Below are positions 12,473 through 25,661 of a stretch of DNA of 64,000 bases, one piece after another (positions within the stretch are counted from its first letter, which is position 1; each line of letters begins with the position of its first letter). Under the pieces are notes generated by a model. It was not told the origin of the DNA, did no database searches, and saw only the letters and a program-made list of their open reading frames with translations. The translations under genes were made by a program, and so were the position numbers. This DNA comes from a phage. Where the stretch lies: sequence record NC_100371.1; one strand, given 5' to 3'.

Positions 12473-12814
12473 CTACTCAAGGTCTTCAGAGTCAAGCTCA
12501 AAAAGAATCAAACTGTGCATGCCTGCAGAGAGATCAACACACCCTGCAACAATAAGGGTTTGATAGTAAGGTTCAGCACCCTCAATATCTTCGTTAAAAT
12601 CCACAACAAGGTAGTCACCTTTGTTAAAGGTGTATTTGTCCGATGTAAACGCAAAACCTGCCCAGTCCCCTACTGCAGGATCTTTATCAGTCACCTTTGT
12701 TAGCAGTAGATCTTTTTCACGAGATCTTTTAGTAAAATCGTGAATCACAACATCCTTCTCTTCAGGAGTCGGATTGCCACACACGTAGTTAACGATATTT
12801 CTCCACAAACTCAT
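12473..12814 (-). CDS. hypothetical protein (113 aa)
   Basis: Co-oriented ORF; ATGA overlap with the upstream gene. Confidence 0.45.
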   Translation of the reverse strand: MSLWRNIVNYVCGNPTPEEKDVVIHDFTKRSREKDLLLTKVTDKDPAVGDWAGFAFTSDKYTFNKGDYLVVDFNEDIEGAEPYYQTLIVAGCVDLSAGMHSLILFELDSEDLE

Positions 12815-13458
12815 ACGTCCCCCTTTTCTGCTCTAGTTTCAAAATCTTTCCTGACTTTCTCGTCTAAACCAGGGAAAGTTGTATTATAAAACTCTACGAC
12901 TCTCGGGTCAACAATAATATCCACCTCTCTTAATGGACGCAACAAGTTTATTCCTTGTATCGTCTTAACCCGACTCAAGGCAACATACGTCATTCCGGGA
13001 GAGAAAGCTCCGTTCTTTCCGAGGTCTAGGTTGTAACAATCTAACGTAAGTCCTTGACTTTTATGCGATGTTACTGCGTACCCAGATTTCAAAGGAAGTT
13101 GCTCATAAGACCCGATCACAACCCTCTCTATGAACTTCTCCATCTTCCTTTCGGCAATATTGTACCTCTGGGAAGGTTTGTACTCGTTATTCTCCCACAA
13201 TCTCGGCTCAATTTCAACCTGTGTCCCGTCTTCCAGCTCAACCACCACAGACTTGGTCTTGAATTTTACCACTGTGGCTCGTGTCCCGTTGACATAGTAC
13301 GGAACTTTGTGTGTCGGGTCAACATCGTTTGAGGTTATCATAACCTTCATCCCTATCTTCAGCCTCATTTCCTGCTCCACAGGTAGTGTGGAAGGGAACT
13401 TACCTTTCATTTTACCAATGTAGGTCTTCTCTGGGGCCTTGATGGCATCATAGAAACG
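12811..13458 (-). pseudogene. Pif1/RecD/Dda-like SF1B helicase, C-terminal part (frame-shifted relative to the N-terminal part)
   Basis: Contains helicase motifs V/VI (VTSHKSQGLTLD, TYVALSRVKT). This frame is open upstream to 13458 and overlaps the end of the N-terminal ORF in a different frame. Confidence 0.7.
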
Positions 13459-14179
13459 TCATCACCTCCTCTGCTTGCTTATTGGTGGCACAGATGGTCA
13501 AGGCATCTGTTGGGACACCACCATGATAGCAACGAGTGTTAAGCTCTGCTACAACCTCTTTTATGCGACGACCTTCACGAACACAGTTCAACATTGTGGC
13601 GAAGCGAACAGATTCCTGACGGAACTGGTCTACTAATGCTATGTTGTGAAGATTAAGATCCTCCCAAGATTCTGTATAGCAACACAGATCTGTGTGGTAG
13701 AAGTTGAAGTAGGCTTCTTTCTCCATAGAAGAGACAACTGGAGGTGCTTGGTAGAAATCTCCAAACAATAACACCTGAATGCCTCCGAAAGGTTTGTCAT
13801 TTTTCCGAAGAAAGCGGAGTTTTCTATCCATCTCTATGAACTTGTCAGCACGGATCATAGAGATTTCATCGATAATCAGGATGGTAAATGCCTTGCTTTT
13901 CAGAGGCTTTGCTGTTTTTGCCCTTATTGCTGTCCAGTCTGACTCCATGCTCACACCTGCGGCAAGATCGAAAGTTCGGTGCGCTGTTGCTCCATTAACG
14001 TTTAAAGCGGCTACCCCTGTCGGGGCAACCGTTATGCAAGAGTCTCCATACATGGACTGGATCATGTTGATAAGATATGTCTTCCCGGTTCCACCAGGTC
14101 CACTTACGAAGACATTCTCACCGCTCATGATTGCAACAAGGGCAGCATCTGTGCCTACATCGTACTGCCCTTTTTCCAT
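13448..14179 (-). pseudogene. Pif1/RecD/Dda-like SF1B helicase, N-terminal part
   Basis: Walker A GPGGTGKT, motif II LIIDEISM, motif III LLFGDFYQAPPV; ends ...ATNKQAEEVMTFL and continues in another frame as the C-terminal part. Confidence 0.7.
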
Positions 14180-18313: not shown

Positions 18314-19498
18314 TCAAGCTTTAGCTAAAATGGCGCTAAACTCTTCACCAAACTCTTTTACAATCTTCATCAGGTTTGGGTATGCTTTGATCAGCTGAGC
18401 AACGATCTTGTCCCTGCCTTTACCAATAAGTAAGGCATTTCCTAAGGCGTTAGGTTTCATCATCGCCATAAAGACTGAGAATACAAAGTCTCGGTTCTCA
18501 TCCTTGAAATTTTCCCAAAGGAAATCAAGGAAGTTTGCCACACAGCTGACGAGATCTTCGTCGGAGATACTTGCATTTTCCATCATATTACGAATAGCGA
18601 TACAACCTTCAGACCCCAGAATCCACAAGATGTCTGGCTGCTTAGGACCTACATATTCTTTGCAGCCTCCTGCCATAATCCGACCGATTTCTGGCAAGTT
18701 TCGTTTCTTGGTGTGGTAGGTCCAAATTTCTACCGCTGCAGTGTGACCAATTGCACCTTGTAGAAGGACACGGGCCATAGCGTCAGAAATAATACCGCTG
18801 TCAAAATCGTGCAGGATGTCAGATGCAGCAACCCAAGATCGCGGTGTAGCAAAAGATGGACAATTAATCTCAGCCATGGCCTCATAATTATCGATGGCTG
18901 ATGGGACTCTTTTCAGATATCCAATTACCGAGGAGTGCACCCCATTAAGGAATGCATAGTCCTCAATAAACACCTCTGCACTGCTTGTAACTTCTACAAT
19001 GATAAAGCGGTTAGCTAGAGGAGCTTCGAGCGCCGAAAGAACAGCACCGTCTGTAGCACGGTTACCTGCAGCTACAAAAACAGAGCCCTTAGGAAATGCA
19101 TAGGTGCCGCACTTGTGGTCGAGCATAATTTGCATTGCAACCTTCTGCAGGTAGTTATCTGCATGAGTAAGCTCATCTAGAAAGATAATTCCGCTCCAGT
19201 CCGGATCTGCAGGCCAAAATTCTGGAATTGCAAACACTGTGCGTGTAGTCCCATCCGACTCTACAGGGATAGGTAGCCCAGATAAGTCAGCAGGATCTTT
19301 ATCTGACAACCGCACGTCAACCAGGTTGTCATCTCGCTCACCGAACATATTATCAGCAATCTGCTTCATCACCTGGCTCTTCCCCACGCCCATCGGTCCT
19401 AAAATCAGGACAGATCGGTTATGACGCTGGGCAAATTGAATAATAGCTGGCAACTCGCGGACAGTGATTTGACCACTTTCGAATACGTTTCTTGACAT
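18314..19498 (-). CDS. MoxR-family AAA+ ATPase (AAA_5; CobS/RavA-like)
   Basis: 394 aa. Walker A ILGPMGVGKS, Walker B IIFLDELTHA, sensor/arginine region AAGNRATDG ... ANRF typical of MoxR/CobS AAA+ proteins. Confidence 0.8.
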   Translation of the reverse strand: MSRNVFESGQITVRELPAIIQFAQRHNRSVLILGPMGVGKSQVMKQIADNMFGERDDNLVDVRLSDKDPADLSGLPIPVESDGTTRTVFAIPEFWPADPDWSGIIFLDELTHADNYLQKVAMQIMLDHKCGTYAFPKGSVFVAAGNRATDGAVLSALEAPLANRFIIVEVTSSAEVFIEDYAFLNGVHSSVIGYLKRVPSAIDNYEAMAEINCPSFATPRSWVAASDILHDFDSGIISDAMARVLLQGAIGHTAAVEIWTYHTKKRNLPEIGRIMAGGCKEYVGPKQPDILWILGSEGCIAIRNMMENASISDEDLVSCVANFLDFLWENFKDENRDFVFSVFMAMMKPNALGNALLIGKGRDKIVAQLIKAYPNLMKIVKEFGEEFSAILAKA

Positions 19499-19767
19499 TA
19501 GTAAAAGTCCTCTACTTGTGTGTAAGTGTTTTCAAAGTTTTCCAAAACAGACATCACATCGGATCTGTCAATATCATACGCAACTCTCCAGCCATATGCA
19601 ACCCTTTCTGCTGTTGCCTCTTCTGGCGCTAGTCGTCTGCTGGCATAAAAGAGTGTTGGAGTACACTTTCTTGCTTGCCCTCTAACTTTCCCATAATAAT
19701 ATCTGTGAATATCTTTGTCAAAATTTAATTCTTTTTCTGCACGAAGTTCGTACTGCTGGTATAACAT
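19498..19767 (-). CDS. hypothetical protein (89 aa)
   Basis: Co-oriented ORF; 1-nt overlap with the MoxR gene. Confidence 0.4.
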   Translation of the reverse strand: MLYQQYELRAEKELNFDKDIHRYYYGKVRGQARKCTPTLFYASRRLAPEEATAERVAYGWRVAYDIDRSDVMSVLENFENTYTQVEDFY

Positions 19768-19811
19768 CTCTACTGCTCCTTAAGCAGCATCCTTGCCGCC
19801 ATCCCTACCCA

Positions 19812-20192
19812 CTAAAATGCAGTCCGAATCCAGACAAGGTTCTTATCTGCCCAATCATAGAGGCAAGTCATTGCACTATTGAATTGCTCACACGGAGGAT
19901 AATCTTCTTCCATCTTGCGCATAGCAGAGCCTTGTGGGTAAAGCTCCCGTGCTGCAAACCACGCGTCGTAGTCATCAACGGTATCGAAGTAGTATACAAC
20001 ATCCTCCAACTCAGGATCGAACTTTGAACTATCAGGATCCAGCCGTTCAGGGAACTTGGAGCGTAACTTGCCAGCCACAATACTTGCCAACTCGCTAACA
20101 TGTTTGTTGTCCCACTCTACCAGTTTCCCGTCTTCAGTTATGCGTCCTAACCACTGATCATGAAGGTCAACTGTTGTCTTCCACTGGGCCAT
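19812..20192 (-). CDS. hypothetical protein (126 aa)
   Basis: Co-oriented ORF. Confidence 0.45.
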   Translation of the reverse strand: MAQWKTTVDLHDQWLGRITEDGKLVEWDNKHVSELASIVAGKLRSKFPERLDPDSSKFDPELEDVVYYFDTVDDYDAWFAARELYPQGSAMRKMEEDYPPCEQFNSAMTCLYDWADKNLVWIRTAF

Positions 20193-20194
20193 TA

Positions 20195-20452
20195 TCAGTC
20201 TACCTCTTCTTCTCGTTGCAGTTCAAGATACCCATAGGTCTGGATATCTTCAAAGGTGTGGAACTCTCCATCTGCCGCTAAGGCACGGACAACCTGGCAT
20301 AGAGTTTTATAAGGTACTTTCTCCAAACCCAGATTCAGCGCAGGAAAAACCTTATCTAAGTCAACAAAATATACAAACTGTAGCTCACCAGTTTCAAAAG
20401 GCGTATCTTCGATAAACATCTTCTCGGCATTAGTTAAGATTTGCACTTTCAT
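20195..20452 (-). CDS. hypothetical protein (85 aa)
   Basis: Co-oriented ORF; tightly packed. Confidence 0.4.
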   Translation of the reverse strand: MKVQILTNAEKMFIEDTPFETGELQFVYFVDLDKVFPALNLGLEKVPYKTLCQVVRALAADGEFHTFEDIQTYGYLELQREEEVD

Positions 20453-20808
20453 TATTCTGCCTCCTCTTCTTTTTCTTCAGCATTAGTTTCAGTACCACCC
20501 CACTCTGGAGTTTCCACCTCGACAGTAAACTCACGCACTACACGGTAATTGCCCATGAAGCGCTCCACTTCTTCAAGGCTTATGGAGAGGCCATTGGCAA
20601 CCAAGTCTGCAGCACCCTTCTCTACCAGGTAGTCCAGATTGGCTTCCAAGGCTTCAGGCTCAAACCCTGTCAATGCAATCATATAACCTTCCCCTTCATC
20701 AGGGAGGGCAATACAGCCCAACTGATTTTCTTTAAAAAAGCAGTGACCATCACTATTGATTGGTTGCTCATTGCAGTAAATAGCTGCACGATAAGTAACT
20801 TTAGACAT
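20452..20808 (-). CDS. hypothetical protein (118 aa), acidic C-terminus
   Basis: Co-oriented ORF; C-terminal AEEKEEEAE tail. Confidence 0.45.
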   Translation of the reverse strand: MSKVTYRAAIYCNEQPINSDGHCFFKENQLGCIALPDEGEGYMIALTGFEPEALEANLDYLVEKGAADLVANGLSISLEEVERFMGNYRVVREFTVEVETPEWGGTETNAEEKEEEAE

Positions 20809-20820
20809 TGATAGGCCTCC

Positions 20821-21099
20821 TTAGGCAACTGTCATTTTACATTCTTGAAATTTTAGCACAAGACGGTGATTGTGTCTAGTGTCTAAAAAGATTTTTTCAA
20901 CCATCAGGCACACGGTATAACCGTCTGTCTTGTTGACAACAAAATCCCCAGGGTGAGGGAGAATGTCCCCAGGATTGGGGAAACATAACCCGCTCAAGAA
21001 GGCATCATCGGTGGTGGACTTAATGGATTTCCACACACTATCTGCCTGAACATTCTCACCAACATAATATACACTACCACATGACTTCATCATAGTCAA
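20821..21099 (-). CDS. hypothetical protein (92 aa)
   Basis: Co-oriented ORF. Confidence 0.4.
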   Translation of the reverse strand: MTMMKSCGSVYYVGENVQADSVWKSIKSTTDDAFLSGLCFPNPGDILPHPGDFVVNKTDGYTVCLMVEKIFLDTRHNHRLVLKFQECKMTVA

Positions 21100-21995
21100 A
21101 TCTCCGCGTAAATTAAACTGGAATCAGTATACTTCTTTAGTGGGTAAATATCCTGTCCATAGATGCCGTCATTAAACACCTCATCTACCCAAAGGCTACA
21201 CTTATATCCCATCATCTCTAAAACACCCATCTCTTCTTCGGTAAACTTATCACCGCTCTTGCAAGATGTCAACACCTCATTCTGTACTCTTGCTACCTCG
21301 AAGCGATTATTGGCAATATCGCTATTGGCGATCAAATACTCACCTAAAGGGTGTGCGGCATTAAAGATGCACAGTGGGCGGTTGACGTAATAGTCTCCAG
21401 GTGTATAAAAATTATTGAGGTCTTTCACTAGGACATTCTTATCAGTCACTTCATTTATAACATCATGCATATCGCACATCTTTATATGTTTGAGGATTCC
21501 ATCCCCCATCACAAAATAAAAACTTGCTGAGACACTCTCGGCATAGATCTTACTAGATCCGTTGTAGTTGTATTTTACTCGGATGCTAACGGGGGTTTTT
21601 CCTGTCGCGTTAGCCATCATCCAAAGAAATGGCAGCTCATACTTCTCCTCTGAGGAAACAAAAGGTGAAGTTGCCAGAGATCGGAAACCTCCAGAGAAGT
21701 TGAAAGTTACAGAACCGCTCCGGCGGTATGATACTGCGTATTCCACTTTTATATCAACATATCCGTTGGAGTAAGTATGCCCTCCATTATCAAGGTATGT
21801 CCACTTATCTGACCCAGATACCAACCTCCGCTCAATTACCTTCATCACTACAGGGATTAGCGGATTAGTACAAACCGATTTTGAAGTAGCTTTATCATCC
21901 AAAGCCTCGTAAATTGCAGAAAGGATATCACCTGCTGAGAGATTGGTTGTGATATCTTGTTTCCACCTGGTGCTAAAACTGTTAAGATTTGCCAT
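21096..21995 (-). CDS. hypothetical protein (299 aa), first gene of the leftward operon
   Basis: ATG at 21995 with AGGAG RBS; immediately downstream of the minus-strand promoter. Confidence 0.5.
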   Translation of the reverse strand: MANLNSFSTRWKQDITTNLSAGDILSAIYEALDDKATSKSVCTNPLIPVVMKVIERRLVSGSDKWTYLDNGGHTYSNGYVDIKVEYAVSYRRSGSVTFNFSGGFRSLATSPFVSSEEKYELPFLWMMANATGKTPVSIRVKYNYNGSSKIYAESVSASFYFVMGDGILKHIKMCDMHDVINEVTDKNVLVKDLNNFYTPGDYYVNRPLCIFNAAHPLGEYLIANSDIANNRFEVARVQNEVLTSCKSGDKFTEEEMGVLEMMGYKCSLWVDEVFNDGIYGQDIYPLKKYTDSSLIYAEI

Positions 21996-22035
21996 GAGTA
22001 AGTGCTCCTATGTTAGTTTTCTTTTGAATGGGTGC

Positions 22036-22064
22036 ACTATATCGTGGATTTAGAGTAAAGTCAA
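22036..22064 (-). promoter_or_regulatory. sigma70-type promoter, leftward (-35 TTGACT, 17-nt spacer, -10 TATAGT)
   Basis: Read on minus strand: TTGACT-N17-TATAGT in the divergent intergenic region upstream of gene 21096..21995. Confidence 0.6.
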
Positions 22065-22077
22065 TACGTTTTTCAGG

Positions 22078-22106
22078 TTGACATCTTCTCAGGCACTTGG
22101 TAAGAT
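22078..22106 (+). promoter_or_regulatory. sigma70-type promoter, rightward (-35 TTGACA, 17-nt spacer, -10 TAAGAT)
   Basis: TTGACA at 22078-22083, 17-nt spacer, TAAGAT at 22101-22106; upstream of the first plus-strand gene. Confidence 0.6.
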
Positions 22107-22138
22107 TTCTCCACCCACAGAGAACAAGAGACAACTCA

Positions 22139-23127
22139 TGAATCTTGAAAAATATTATACACCAGAAGAGTTAGAGCGCTTGCTCAAAAAATACAGACGC
22201 AAACAGAATAACGCACGGAAACGGGATATAGAGTTCAACCTGTCATGGGAAGAATATCTCCTATTTGGTAAAAAACTTTTAGGAGAGGGAGTATGCGACT
22301 ATACCCTTATACCTTTCGACATGCACACAGATGAAAACGGACTGGGAAATCCTTTCTACCCATCTCTAGAGCGGATAGATGATGAAGGTCCTTATGCGGT
22401 TGATAACTGTTGTGTGGTAGGATTGAGATGCAACTCTCTAAAGGACTGTCTGGTAGATAAAAAGACCGCAGTCTTGATTAAAGACAAAACTGATCGAAAA
22501 ATTGTCCAGCAGATGATGCTCCACCTGAGCGAAGAGCGTATGGAGAAATTGAAAGGTGATTACACTTTTGAAGATTTCATCTTGCAATATGGAACGGAAG
22601 AGGATAAACTAGCACTCTTTGACGAAGAATGGGAGGAAGATATGTCACCAATGCAGGATTTTAAAAACTTCATGGCTAATCGTGGAGCCAACAAGCACAT
22701 TTCTGACATTGTAAACGAGCCTGCAGTAGAGGAGATTGAAGAGATGACGCAACAGGCTTACGAAGAGGAAAAAGAGCCTCAAGGGGTCGAAGAAGAGCTT
22801 ACAGAAGAGGTTCCTGCACTGCCTGACGATGTTGAGATTGCCAAAGCTTACACTTTCTATTGCCAGACGTTCTACGATGCAGGTATGAAAGTTGATCTGT
22901 CATTCAGCCAGTTTAAGAGCACATACATTCGAAAATGTTGTGCTTTAACTGGTGAACGTCTCGGTGCCGGACTTAAACCCCTATTAGTTACCGACTGGAA
23001 CAAAGGTTTCACCAAAGGTAACTTCATGGTAGTATCTCCAATCATGGAGAAGGCTATGACAGACCTTATGAAGACCACTCGCATGACAATGACCGAGTTG
23101 GCTGGTATTTTCAAGCACGTTAAATAA
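22139..23127 (+). CDS. hypothetical protein with internal duplication and acidic linker
   Basis: ORF track 22078..23127 starts at a TTG inside the promoter; ATG at 22139 preferred. Two related segments (…SLERIDDEGPYAVDNCCVV… / …LTGERLGAGLKPLLVTDWNKGF…NFMVV…) separated by a Glu-rich region. Confidence 0.5.
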
Positions 23128-23160
23128 TGACAGGGGCCAATGGCCCCTTCTGGAGTTTTA

Positions 23161-24621
23161 ATGGATAGCAGAAGTTCAGAAATCATTACCGCACAAAAAG
23201 ATGATGCCTTGCGAATGCTGCAGGCCGCTCGCATGTACCTTCTTGAAAAGCTGCCGTTTTATGGCACACTGTTGTCAGGGTTACAGTTCGTAGAAAACCA
23301 CACATGGTGCTCCACTATGGCAACAGACCATAAACGCATCTACTACAGTCCTGAGTTCATTATGGGGTTGGCAGATGAGCGTAAAACCATTCTTAAAGCA
23401 TCTCTGACTGACAAGCAGTTTGAGATGGCTGAAGTTTTCTATTCCCCAAAATCTGTGAAAGAGGTGGCCTTTCTTCTGTCACATGAGGTGGGGCATATTA
23501 TCTGTGATCATCTGGTCCGTGGTAAAAGCTTTGAGCCGGAACTGTTCAATATTGCTTGTGATCACGTTATCAACACAGGTCTTGTGGTTGACTTTAGCAA
23601 GCCTCCTTGTGTTTTCTTCCCGAAGGGGAAAAGCACTGAGTTCGTAAAAGGTAAGCCTTTTGGCTTCTTAGCCAGTTGCTACTGCGACATGGAGTTTCAT
23701 GGATGGATTGCTGAGAACGTCTATGCAGTTCTTGATAAACAAAGAGATCAGAATAGCGGTAAAAGTAAGAACGGTAAAGGTGAGAACTCCCAAGGAGATA
23801 AACGACAAACCGATGATCACATGAGTGGGAACGGTGGCACCAGTGATGATCTTGGAAAGGCTATGGGGTATGATCAGCCGCAACCAGTAATCAGTCAATC
23901 TGATAAAGATCAGGCCATGCAGGACTCTGGTGACATGTTGGAAGCAGCAATGCAAGCTTCAGGAGGTCGTTGCCCCGAGGCGGTGCGCGAGTTTGTCAAA
24001 AACAGAGGCAAGCCTGTAATCAATTATATAGATATTATTAAGCAACGTATGTTATCTAAAAGAAAGGCTGAGTTAACCTACAGAAAACCTGGTCGCCGAT
24101 CTGGGTCTTTGACCACCACAATGCGAAAAGTTGGAGCTATAAACAAGAATCAACACGTTATTGTTCCTGGTCGTAATCCGGAAAACACTATAGATATTGT
24201 AGTGGCTTTAGACGTTTCTGGATCGATCTCACAAAGAACTTTAAAGAAAATGTTCAATGAGATCACCGGGTTGTGCAATTTGTATAAAGAGTTTAAGGTT
24301 ACGATGTTCTGTTGGTCAACCGAGGTTGGAGAGGTTAAAGTATACACTCGCGGTAACATCGATGAGATGATCAACTATGAGGTCCACTCAACATGGGGCA
24401 CAACAGCCGCCTGCGTGTTCGAGTATCTGGATGCTAACATACCGAATGCAAAAGATGTCATCGTCCTTACCGATCTCTACTTTGAGCATAACTTTGAACA
24501 AAAGGCTGTTGACAACAAGTGGAAAAAGTACGATACTTTATGGGTTCTCACTGAAGGGTATAATAAAAATTATATCCCGAGCTTTGGGAAAACTGTGGAA
24601 TTAATCGAGTACGTTAAATAA
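23161..24621 (+). CDS. HExxH metallopeptidase-like / von Willebrand factor A (vWA) domain protein
   Basis: N-terminal HExxH (LLSHEVGHIICDH); C-terminal vWA with MIDAS DxSGS (VVALDVSGSIS) and VIVLTDLYF. Preferred start ATG 23161 (GGAG RBS) after hairpin 23132-23148; ORF-track start 23140. Confidence 0.7.
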   Translation: MDSRSSEIITAQKDDALRMLQAARMYLLEKLPFYGTLLSGLQFVENHTWCSTMATDHKRIYYSPEFIMGLADERKTILKASLTDKQFEMAEVFYSPKSVKEVAFLLSHEVGHIICDHLVRGKSFEPELFNIACDHVINTGLVVDFSKPPCVFFPKGKSTEFVKGKPFGFLASCYCDMEFHGWIAENVYAVLDKQRDQNSGKSKNGKGENSQGDKRQTDDHMSGNGGTSDDLGKAMGYDQPQPVISQSDKDQAMQDSGDMLEAAMQASGGRCPEAVREFVKNRGKPVINYIDIIKQRMLSKRKAELTYRKPGRRSGSLTTTMRKVGAINKNQHVIVPGRNPENTIDIVVALDVSGSISQRTLKKMFNEITGLCNLYKEFKVTMFCWSTEVGEVKVYTRGNIDEMINYEVHSTWGTTAACVFEYLDANIPNAKDVIVLTDLYFEHNFEQKAVDNKWKKYDTLWVLTEGYNKNYIPSFGKTVELIEYVK

Positions 24622-24636
24622 AGGAGGAGATTATTT

Positions 24637-24900
24637 ATGGCAACAGAGTTAAAATTTGCATCCAACCGTAAAACTAAGAAGTATCTGTCTTCAGTAGCTC
24701 CAGGTACTGTGGTGATGTTTGTTGATGAACTTGGAGATGTGAATACAGCACTTGTTGTGAGATCACATCCTGCAAACATATATGTTGGGGTATTTGACCT
24801 GTTCAGAAAGGTGTTTGCAGAACTACCTCACACCTTGGTTGTTACAGAAATGGATGCCTGCATAGAAATTCTTGGCGAAGTTATGGTGGAGGAACAATAA
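24637..24900 (+). CDS. hypothetical small protein, tandem paralog 1 of 4 (87 aa)
   Basis: AAGGAGGAG RBS; MAT...GTVV...D..G pattern shared with the next three genes. Confidence 0.55.
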   Translation: MATELKFASNRKTKKYLSSVAPGTVVMFVDELGDVNTALVVRSHPANIYVGVFDLFRKVFAELPHTLVVTEMDACIEILGEVMVEEQ

Positions 24901-25163
24901 TGGCTACTAGCATTGTATTCAATTCTAAAGTGAAGAACAAAAAGCGTGCAGACAGTTTTCCATGTGGGACCGTGGTAAGTTGTGACGGAGACGGCATTCA
25001 AAACATAGTTATGATTGTCAAAACAGGGGAACATTGTGTATGGGGGTTCGATTTAGAAAATAATGAGTTGTACGATCTGCCACCAAACATGAAAGTTACA
25101 GAGCTTGACACCAAAATTACCATCCTTGGAGAGACAAGCTATTCAAAAGAAGGAGGAGAATAA
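24900..25163 (+). CDS. hypothetical small protein, tandem paralog 2 of 4 (87 aa)
   Basis: TAATG stop/start overlap; same length and pattern (MATSIVF...CGTVVSCDGDG). Confidence 0.55.
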   Translation: MATSIVFNSKVKNKKRADSFPCGTVVSCDGDGIQNIVMIVKTGEHCVWGFDLENNELYDLPPNMKVTELDTKITILGETSYSKEGGE

Positions 25164-25426
25164 TGACCACGAAAATCACCATTGCAGAACCAAAAGCTAA
25201 CACGCAACCTATCGAAAAGTTTAAATGCGGTGAGGTGGTAACATTTACACCAGATAATGAAGATGCTAAGATTTTTGCCATGGTAACAGCCGAGTGGATG
25301 TGTGACAATACCACACAGGTGCTGCGTTTTGACACCTATCTTACAGATGAAATCAGGAACGACAAGATCGTGACTGGTGTGGATACTGAGATTATTTTCT
25401 ACAAGAGCTTTTTAGAGGGTTTCTGA
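25163..25426 (+). CDS. hypothetical small protein, tandem paralog 3 of 4 (87 aa)
   Basis: TAATG overlap; KFKCGEVVTF pattern. Confidence 0.55.
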   Translation: MTTKITIAEPKANTQPIEKFKCGEVVTFTPDNEDAKIFAMVTAEWMCDNTTQVLRFDTYLTDEIRNDKIVTGVDTEIIFYKSFLEGF

Positions 25427-25427
25427 T

Positions 25428-25661
25428 ATGGCAAAAATTCGTAAATTATCCAGCAATCAGGTTGTGAAAGACTTTGAATCTGGAGAGATCTTGTATGTCC
25501 GTGATGCAGATGATGAATGTGAAGATCTTGTTATGCTGGTAGGGCACGCTGAAGACGGATGCATCCAGGCTGTTTTTCTTGAAACAGCGATGGTGCACTG
25601 GATAGAGCTGGACCTGAAAGCACGAAAACCTAAAGCAGAAATCATTATTTACGAAGATTAA
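25428..25661 (+). CDS. hypothetical small protein, tandem paralog 4 of 4 (77 aa, more divergent)
   Basis: Adjacent, co-oriented; FESGEILYVRDADDECEDLVMLV pattern resembles paralogs 1-3. Confidence 0.5.
   Translation: MAKIRKLSSNQVVKDFESGEILYVRDADDECEDLVMLVGHAEDGCIQAVFLETAMVHWIELDLKARKPKAEIIIYED

Follow-up and report, generated by a model that had tools for sequence, protein, structure and literature searches.

A MoxR-clade AAA+ ATPase and a putative metallopeptidase-vWA protein encoded apart, on opposite strands, in an rV5-like phage genome

The stretch of DNA analyzed here, a 64,000-nt window from a phage (sequence record NC_100371.1), encodes a AAA+ ATPase and, on the opposite strand, a protein that combines an HExxH-bearing, zincin-like domain with a C-terminal vWA domain. 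A 7-kb region of the window shares 99.2% identity with Escherichia phage B9-1 and 93-95% identity with more than 100 rV5-like phages, and on the basis of these identities its source is assigned to Vequintavirus, the rV5-like coliphages. We find strong support for the two proteins being functional partners despite the gap between their genes, since each accompanies the other when loci are collected with the partner protein as seed, when they are collected with the ATPase as seed, and in annotated phage genomes. Position numbers refer to the whole window and residue numbers to the encoded protein.

The two genes and their main parts are the following:

18314..19498, minus strand: gene of the MoxR-clade AAA+ ATPase, 394 amino acids (open reading frame present; phrog_1297, motifs and model)
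19232-19273, minus strand: predicted helix-2 beta-hairpin insert of the ATPase, residues 76-89 (AlphaFold model)
23161..24621, plus strand: partner gene, 486 amino acids, DUF2201_N zincin-like domain with C-terminal vWA/MIDAS (open reading frame present; Pfam and motifs)
23482..23496, plus strand: HEVGH of the partner, putative zinc/catalytic motif with H108, E109 and H112, residues 108-112 (motif and conservation)
23758..23844, plus strand: Gly/Ser/Asp/Lys-rich segment of the partner, residues 200-228, predicted disordered with a predicted local distance difference test score (pLDDT) <50 (model; length varies among homologues)
24178..24618, plus strand: vWA domain of the partner, residues ~340-486 (Pfam and fold matches)

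The locus and the two proteins

A sequence-only reading of the window had placed open reading frames (ORFs) at 18314..19498 and 23161..24621, some 3.7 kb apart. Both are present, 3,663 nt from each other and on opposite strands; the 487 amino acids ascribed to the HExxH/vWA protein are in fact 486, the higher figure counting the stop codon. Coding strand and GC skew both switch at ~22.0 kb. The leftward arm contains, in order from this switch, a 299-aa protein, five small ORFs, the ATPase, a 126-aa ORF, a cell-wall hydrolase, and rIIA with rIIB, the last two being genes that act against Rex in EdH4, a related phage (PMC11879866). The rightward arm contains an Srd-like 'anti-sigma' gene (22138..23127), the HExxH/vWA gene and then a series of small ORFs. 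The ATPase and its partner sit in the early/middle region, near rII, Srd-like and replication genes and outside the structural module.

The motif set of the MoxR clade (Walker A and B, sensor-1, an arginine finger before strand 5, and sensor-2) is present in the ATPase, the finger and sensor-2 being placed by analogy. Walker A reads GPMGVGKS (residues 34-41, nt 19376-19399), Walker B reads IIFLDE with D108 and E109 (nt 19169-19192), and sensor-1 comprises N146 and R147, with R164 as putative arginine finger and R220 as putative sensor-2. Residues G37, G39, K40, S41, D108, E109, N146, R147, R164 and R220 are invariant in an alignment of 37 homologues, and the motifs are retained in almost all of ~218 unique sequences. 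The protein matches phrog_1297 ('ATPase') in PHROGs at E=2e-110. Its Pfam matches are sub-threshold only (AAA_5, 16.9 bits with a cut-off of 22; bpMoxR, 15.7 bits with a cut-off of 27), no Pfam match to AAA_3 was obtained, and NCBIfam and PADLOC scans gave no meaningful matches. A hidden Markov model search with AAA_5, which the sequence-only reading had named as a check, thus falls short for the window ATPase and succeeds among its relatives: in precomputed Pfam lists, thousands of ~360-aa proteins ~35% identical to it bear AAA_3 (PF07726) and AAA_5 (PF07728), and matches to AAA_5 and AAA_3 at E<=0.001 were found in 16 of the 37 aligned homologues.

Structural comparisons agree with this placement. 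Against the PDB, the ATPase sequence returned P-loop-level matches only, and the profile of its family matched midasin best (1e-10). The AlphaFold model (pLDDT 81) places two strands, 76-81 and 84-89, in the stretch from beta2 to beta3 and has a further, short hairpin near residues 129-134; its top Foldseek matches are NorQ (solved with the NorD VWA domain) and CbbQ2, with target-normalised template modelling scores of 0.61-0.66. A beta-hairpin insert after helix 2 is the defining trait of the MoxR/midasin/chelatase clade (PMC7159879), and in the model the predicted fold comes closest to MoxR proteins, with the hairpins of the clade in place. The invariant motifs, the AAA_3 and AAA_5 homologues, the midasin profile match, the NorQ/CbbQ2 model match and the helix-2 insert together make 'MoxR-type', the name proposed from the sequence, the correct one, and by these criteria we classify the protein as a MoxR/midasin-clade AAA+ ATPase.

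The partner matches two Pfam families, PF13203 DUF2201_N (E=2e-28, 100.1 bits with a cut-off of 23.2) and PF09967 DUF2201 (VWA-like; E=4e-11, above the curated cut-off). Besides HEVGH it has a complete metal ion-dependent adhesion site (MIDAS) formed by D351-V-S353-G-S355 (nt 24211-24225), T414 and D438, and for its vWA domain both a family-model match and a Rossmann-like vWA fold were found, so that the architecture read from the sequence is upheld. We describe the protein as a putative zincin metallopeptidase domain fused to vWA, in which residues 200-228 are a candidate flexible charged linker. HEVGH and the MIDAS residues D351, S353, S355, T414 and D438 are invariant in the partner alignment; H117 and D134 are also invariant and are, from their conservation, candidate third metal ligands. 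HExxH, H117, D134 and all five MIDAS residues are retained in every one of ~136 unique phage partners, which settles in the affirmative whether the MIDAS motif is intact, a point on which the sequence-only reading had made its pairing depend. Among Campylobacterota partners, in contrast, N replaces H108 in 43 of 48 and E109 is lost in 44 of 48, with H112, H117, D134 and the MIDAS retained. From this difference the catalytic site appears to be needed by phages and not by these Campylobacterota. The partner sequence had no matches to PDB chains, and profile searches against the PDB reached only midasin and integrin I-domains.

Database names for the partner are of another kind. Its PHROG family, phrog_1314, is labelled 'HNH endonuclease', and GenBank calls the protein 'HNH endonuclease' or 'homing endonuclease' in many records and 'anti-sigma factor' in B9-1. 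An HNH endonuclease identity was rejected, because Pfam finds DUF2201_N and DUF2201 only and no HNH or His-Me finger domain; these names consequently look like a propagating mis-annotation.

MoxR ATPases that work with vWA proteins provide the nearest frame for comparison. In such couples the MIDAS of the vWA domain captures a substrate peptide and the ring passes ATP-driven force via charged linkers (PMC7159879), and in NorQ-NorD the pore of the ring receives a finger from the VWA domain (PMC13036017). NorQ/NorD, CbbQ/CbbO and RavA/ViaA resemble the window pair in the fold of the ATPase (NorQ and CbbQ2 being the top matches) and in having as partner a vWA protein with a MIDAS. However, partners of the NorD, CbbO and ViaA type are without a peptidase domain and serve metal insertion, Rubisco activation and respiratory-complex maturation, and the window ATPase, unlike NorQ, CbbQ and RavA, has an extra C-terminal helical region (residues ~270-394) and scores under the cut-offs of Pfam AAA_3 and AAA_5. 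Midasin/Rea1, a eukaryotic ribosome-assembly protein that carries six AAA modules on one giant polypeptide, is likewise without a peptidase domain.

These likenesses raise the explanation that the pair is a metal-cofactor insertion or chelatase-like system of the NorQ/NorD, CoxD/CoxE, CobS/CobT or BchI/BchD type, maturing a metalloenzyme during infection. We consider this very improbable. Neither protein has Pfam or NCBIfam matches to CobS_N, CobT or chelatase families, no candidate target metalloenzyme is conserved beside the pair across phage lineages, and the known insertases lack a fused HExxH domain. Membership of the CobS/CobT or BchI/BchD families was rejected because no such family domain was matched, and the epithet 'CobS-like', which the sequence-only reading had joined to 'MoxR', falls with it, there being no Pfam match to CobS or CobT.

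Co-occurrence and the derived split layout

Phage pairs of the same composition are already on record. Gp24 and gp25 of N4 are homologous to the window pair (hhalign E=1.8e-35 and 1.3e-38) at an identity of only ~21-28%, and gp25 has the HExxH and DxSGS...T...D architecture of the window partner. The N4 genes are adjacent and co-directional, 168 nt apart, whereas those of the window lie 3.66 kb apart on opposite strands. The core gene set of N4-like phages (Schitoviridae), 14 genes in all, includes gp24 and gp25, which are annotated as 'unknown' and 'vWFA domain' and transcribed as middle genes (PMC4193335). The MoxR AAA+/metallopeptidase-vWA couple of group 2.2 jumbo phages (Iyer et al. 2021) equals the window pair in domain architecture and in pairing; a function in virion assembly with proteolytic processing has been proposed for it (PMC7824862). 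The window pair is a rearranged member of this already known phage module.

Co-occurrence across related genomes, which the sequence-only reading had set beforehand as decisive for a partnership, was found from both directions, with exceptions that are contig-cut or borderline. When loci were seeded from the partner, the ATPase was present in 84 of 87, the other three ending at a contig edge. It lay directly upstream on the same strand in 70 of these 84; in the remaining 14, all of them Vequintavirus-, Seunavirus- or Mydovirus-like, it lay 3.5-5.1 kb away on the opposite strand, as in the window. Seeding from the ATPase recovered the partner in 69 of 79 further viral loci (nine others were contig-cut and one was borderline), the two genes being adjacent in 68 of the 69 with a median gap of 72 nt; the sole split locus belongs to the lineage of the window phage itself. 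Overall, homologues stand side by side on one strand with the ATPase first in ~140 other phage loci, a layout from which the window departs. Searches with tblastn returned 674 and 812 phage records for the two proteins, coliphage N4 among them, and the counts per genus match (Escherichia 213/213, Pectobacterium 26/26, Cronobacter 17/17); Rak2-like and other jumbo phages were among the matches to both.

The pair is also adjacent in Cronobacter phage CR3 (Certrevirus, a sister genus in the same subfamily), as CR3_112 and CR3_113. Since adjacency holds in this member of the subfamily and in all other lineages, and the split is limited to the window-like lineage, the comparison of gene orders identifies the split layout as a derived rearrangement within Vequintavirinae. 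The genes that flank the pair in CR3 show no similarity to those that flank the window ATPase and so give no guide to the path of the rearrangement.

The gene neighborhoods of the pair vary among lineages. In other phages it recurs beside genes of a 5'-3' exonuclease, thymidylate synthase and dCTP deaminase. On a 578-kb jumbo phage contig (L005, 1592..8591) it lies between HSP20 and ClpS upstream and ClpP protease downstream, a proteostasis neighborhood. Bacterial loci, mostly of Campylobacterota, were gathered with the ATPase alignment as seed, and the partner is adjacent in 48 of the 67 testable ones. In 51 of 80 Campylobacterota loci (L089-L167; e.g., L162 6593..7942 and L125 6559..7947), among them Sulfurovum loci without the DUF2201 partner, the gene immediately upstream of the ATPase, and often overlapping it, encodes a protein of ~450 amino acids. 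None of Pfam, NCBIfam and PADLOC gives a match for this protein and the phage loci contain no homologue of it; it is a possible third or alternative partner for the bacterial ATPase. In a further bacterial locus (L007, GCA_045600625.1) the pair stands behind a 1076-aa SNF2-type helicase, with a Ser/Thr kinase, a PP2C phosphatase, another VWA protein and a JAB-domain protein nearby; this region looks like a conflict-system island.

Conditional essentiality in a relative and expression signals

Genetic evidence comes from the sister Vequintavirus Bas54 (HIDEN-SEQ), whose annotation table shows a gene order identical to that of the window and agreeing gene lengths (1185 and 1461 nt) for the pair. 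Here bas54_0063 ('MoxR ATPase'), the positional counterpart of the window ATPase, is reported as an anti-defence gene that the phage needs against DS-28, a defence system of E. coli CFE311; its deletion causes a sensitivity specific to DS-28, and bas54_0140 is a second validated anti-DS-28 gene (10.1101/2025.11.20.689424). The preprint treats bas54_0063 alone and makes no link to bas54_0055, the 'putative metallopeptidase'; that link comes from the present analysis together with the supplementary table. In the resampling table of K-12 versus CFE311 (10.1101/2025.11.20.689424 supplement), bas54_0063 has a log2 fold change (log2FC) of -7.23 (q<1e-5) and bas54_0055 one of -2.20 (p=0.0009, q=0.009), and the seven genes between them (0056-0062) and genes 0064-0067 are unchanged. 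Both genes of the pair are non-essential on E. coli K-12, with ~94% of TA sites disrupted (10.1101/2025.11.20.689424). The requirement against DS-28 has been established in Bas54 for the ATPase, by deletion, and is suggested by the transposon table for the partner. With both genes depleted on CFE311, co-occurrence found in both directions and the MIDAS intact, the partnership proposed from the sequence gains in strength. In supplementary file 9 of the preprint the 'resampling_K-12_vs_CFE303' table recurs under the CFE311 sheet, and the CFE303 comparison may be missing from the file.

Given that separation of the two genes is limited to one lineage, the partnership could have been lost there, with the ATPase acting alone or with another partner (e.g., bas54_0140) and the peptidase-vWA protein acting separately. 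The unequal effects in Bas54 (log2FC -7.23 versus -2.20), the existence of bas54_0140 as a second anti-DS-28 gene, and the Sulfurovum ATPases that lack this partner and keep the ~450-aa upstream protein instead would all fit such a history. However, both genes, with every catalytic residue, are kept in all 14 of 14 split-lineage loci, and both are depleted on the same host whereas the intervening genes are not, so that we regard the loss of the partnership as highly unlikely.

The same data bear on the proposal that the couple is a virion assembly chaperone and processing protease, which folds or assembles structural proteins that the peptidase then trims. Iyer et al. 2021 put this forward for the same architecture (PMC7824862) by analogy with the MoxR-vWA tail assembly of Acidianus two-tailed virus, and this archaeal virus tail-assembly system is among the MoxR-vWA couples that have been studied (Kaur et al. 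2020, PMC7159879). A virion role nevertheless fits the Vequintavirus pair poorly, both genes being dispensable for Bas54 plaques on K-12 and located in the early region by the rII, Srd-like and replication genes and not in the structural module. Furthermore, N4 gp24 and gp25 are middle transcripts, and nucleotide-metabolism genes neighbor the pair in other phages. We therefore hold virion assembly to be improbable.

The signals that might govern expression of the pair were sought as consensus matches, and the promoter-like sites given here are such matches:

22064..22036, minus strand: leftward sigma70-like site TTGACT-17-TATAGT, 10/12 consensus
22078..22106, plus strand: rightward sigma70-like site TTGACA-17-TAAGAT with upstream TG, 10/12 consensus
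19693..19721, minus strand: sigma70-like site TTGACA-17-TATTAT, 11/12 consensus, inside the 89-aa ORF 19498..19767 and 223 nt upstream of the ATPase start
23132..23148, no strand assigned: GC-rich hairpin GGGGCC-AAU-GGCCCC between the Srd-like and partner genes (position conserved in the relative L009, 9969..9988)

The first two sites stand back to back and bear out the divergent sigma70 region described by the sequence-only reading. Its statement that both genes are promoter-proximal to this region holds for the partner, the second gene of the rightward unit at ~1 kb downstream of the rightward site, and holds only loosely for the ATPase, whose start is separated from the leftward site by ~2.5 kb and six ORFs and which has a promoter-like site of its own. 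The latter recurs at an identical offset in four relatives (L008-L011) with ATPases 72-99% identical to that of the window and is absent in more distant split-lineage loci. In CR3-like phages an 11/12 sigma70-like match lies 60 nt upstream of the adjacent pair. Early co-expression from shared divergent promoters is plausible; the literature yielded neither a transcriptome nor a virion proteome that includes these genes for Vequintavirus. The hairpin has a minimum free energy of -17.7 kcal/mol in a 48-nt context (z=-3.1) and could be a terminator, an attenuator or an RNA processing site. It overlaps an in-frame ATG at 23140, and since a GGAG precedes the ATG at 23161, the latter is the better start of the partner.

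Several neighboring genes merit description. The 89-aa ORF that contains the minus-strand site belongs to phrog_13164, which is labelled 'ATPase', without any match to an ATPase motif. Immediately 3' of the partner gene, at 24637..25661 (plus strand), three 87-aa ORFs and a 77-aa ORF stand in a row; the first two share 38% identity and the others have only 14-21% identity to the first, a pattern suggestive of a small family of tandem paralogues. Beside rIIB, the PIF1-like helicase is represented in the window by two ORFs, 12811..13410 and 13448..14179 (both minus strand; 199 and 243 amino acids). In Bas54 it is one 456-aa gene, bas54_0068, strongly depleted on CFE311 (log2FC -6.32). A frameshift, a sequencing error or a genuine split might account for the break in the window.

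A proposed remodelling and proteolysis machine

Starting from the domain assignments, the preservation of the catalytic and MIDAS residues, the near-universal co-occurrence and adjacency of the genes and the conditional essentiality of both in a close relative, we infer that the two genes encode subunits of one machine for remodelling and proteolysis, which would act in early or mid-infection on a host protein or a phage-host complex and would be needed against at least one defence (DS-28). We give this proposal somewhat better than even chances. The ATPase would assemble into a MoxR-type AAA+ ring, onto which the partner would dock via its vWA domain. The MIDAS metal site of the partner would capture an acidic residue or peptide of the target, ATP hydrolysis would remodel the bound target, and the HExxH zincin-like domain, fused to the adaptor, would then cleave it. 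Host-type promoters would drive production of the machine early or in mid-infection, and it would not be a virion component; it would be dispensable on the laboratory host and required against at least one bacterial defence, DS-28 being the case at hand. A host-directed function in counter-defence or takeover is favored over one in virion assembly because of the location in the early region, the neighboring rIIA and rIIB, the combination of dispensability on K-12 with the CFE311/DS-28 phenotype, and the neighborhood of HSP20, ClpS and ClpP in the jumbo phage contig.

A number of observations weigh against this proposal. The effects in Bas54 are unequal, insertions in the ATPase gene being lost completely and those in the partner gene dropping ~4.6-fold, and because the phenotypes differ in size a strictly obligate 1:1 machine is not established. 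In all, 27 Bas54 genes are significant on CFE311, which makes a further hit by chance only moderately improbable, and the supplementary sheet is labelled CFE303 though its command line and data header name the CFE311 sample. The ATPase occurs without a DUF2201 partner in 19 of the 67 testable bacterial loci. No solved zincin structure is among the matches listed for the N-terminal domain of the partner, and the term 'metallopeptidase' is accordingly based on membership of the Pfam family and on the retained HExxH motif. Finally, the core status of the pair in N4-like phages and its presence in phages of many hosts point to a role more general than the countering of one rare defence.

Such a general role is the substance of another explanation, in which the pair is a housekeeping remodeller of a replication or transcription complex, either the phage's own or one hijacked from the host, and the DS-28 effect is indirect, a stalled complex or intermediate triggering the defence, for example. 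The pair is a core element of N4-like phages and recurs by 5'-3' exonuclease, thymidylate synthase and dCTP deaminase; the genes conditionally essential on CFE311 include bas54_0068, the PIF1-like helicase encoded in the same arm; and the partner family is very large, with 25,544 cluster representatives (50% identity) at E<=1e-3. Dispensability on K-12 speaks against this explanation, and the peptidase site, intact in all phage copies, is not obviously required for the assembly of a complex. We consider a housekeeping role unlikely, though it deserves to be kept in view beside the proposed host-directed machine.

The proposed machine may be taken one step further, tentatively and with distinctly less confidence than the general proposal. 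The pair could be a phage-encoded, ATP-driven targeting protease, in which the MIDAS would pick a host immune or stress protein (e.g., a component of DS-28), the ring would unfold or remodel it, and the zincin would cut it.

Few phage modules of unsolved function are as widespread as this pair, which is a core component of N4-like phages and occurs in Vequintavirinae and in many jumbo phages. Recognition of the 'putative metallopeptidase' as the vWA partner of the 'MoxR ATPase' turns the one-gene hit of Bas54 against DS-28 into a two-component hypothesis. It also exposes an apparent mis-annotation of the partner gene that is propagating through the databases, and our findings argue against the published proposal of virion assembly. 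If the pair is indeed a targeting protease, it would represent a new mechanistic class of counter-defence common to N4-like, rV5-like and jumbo phages.

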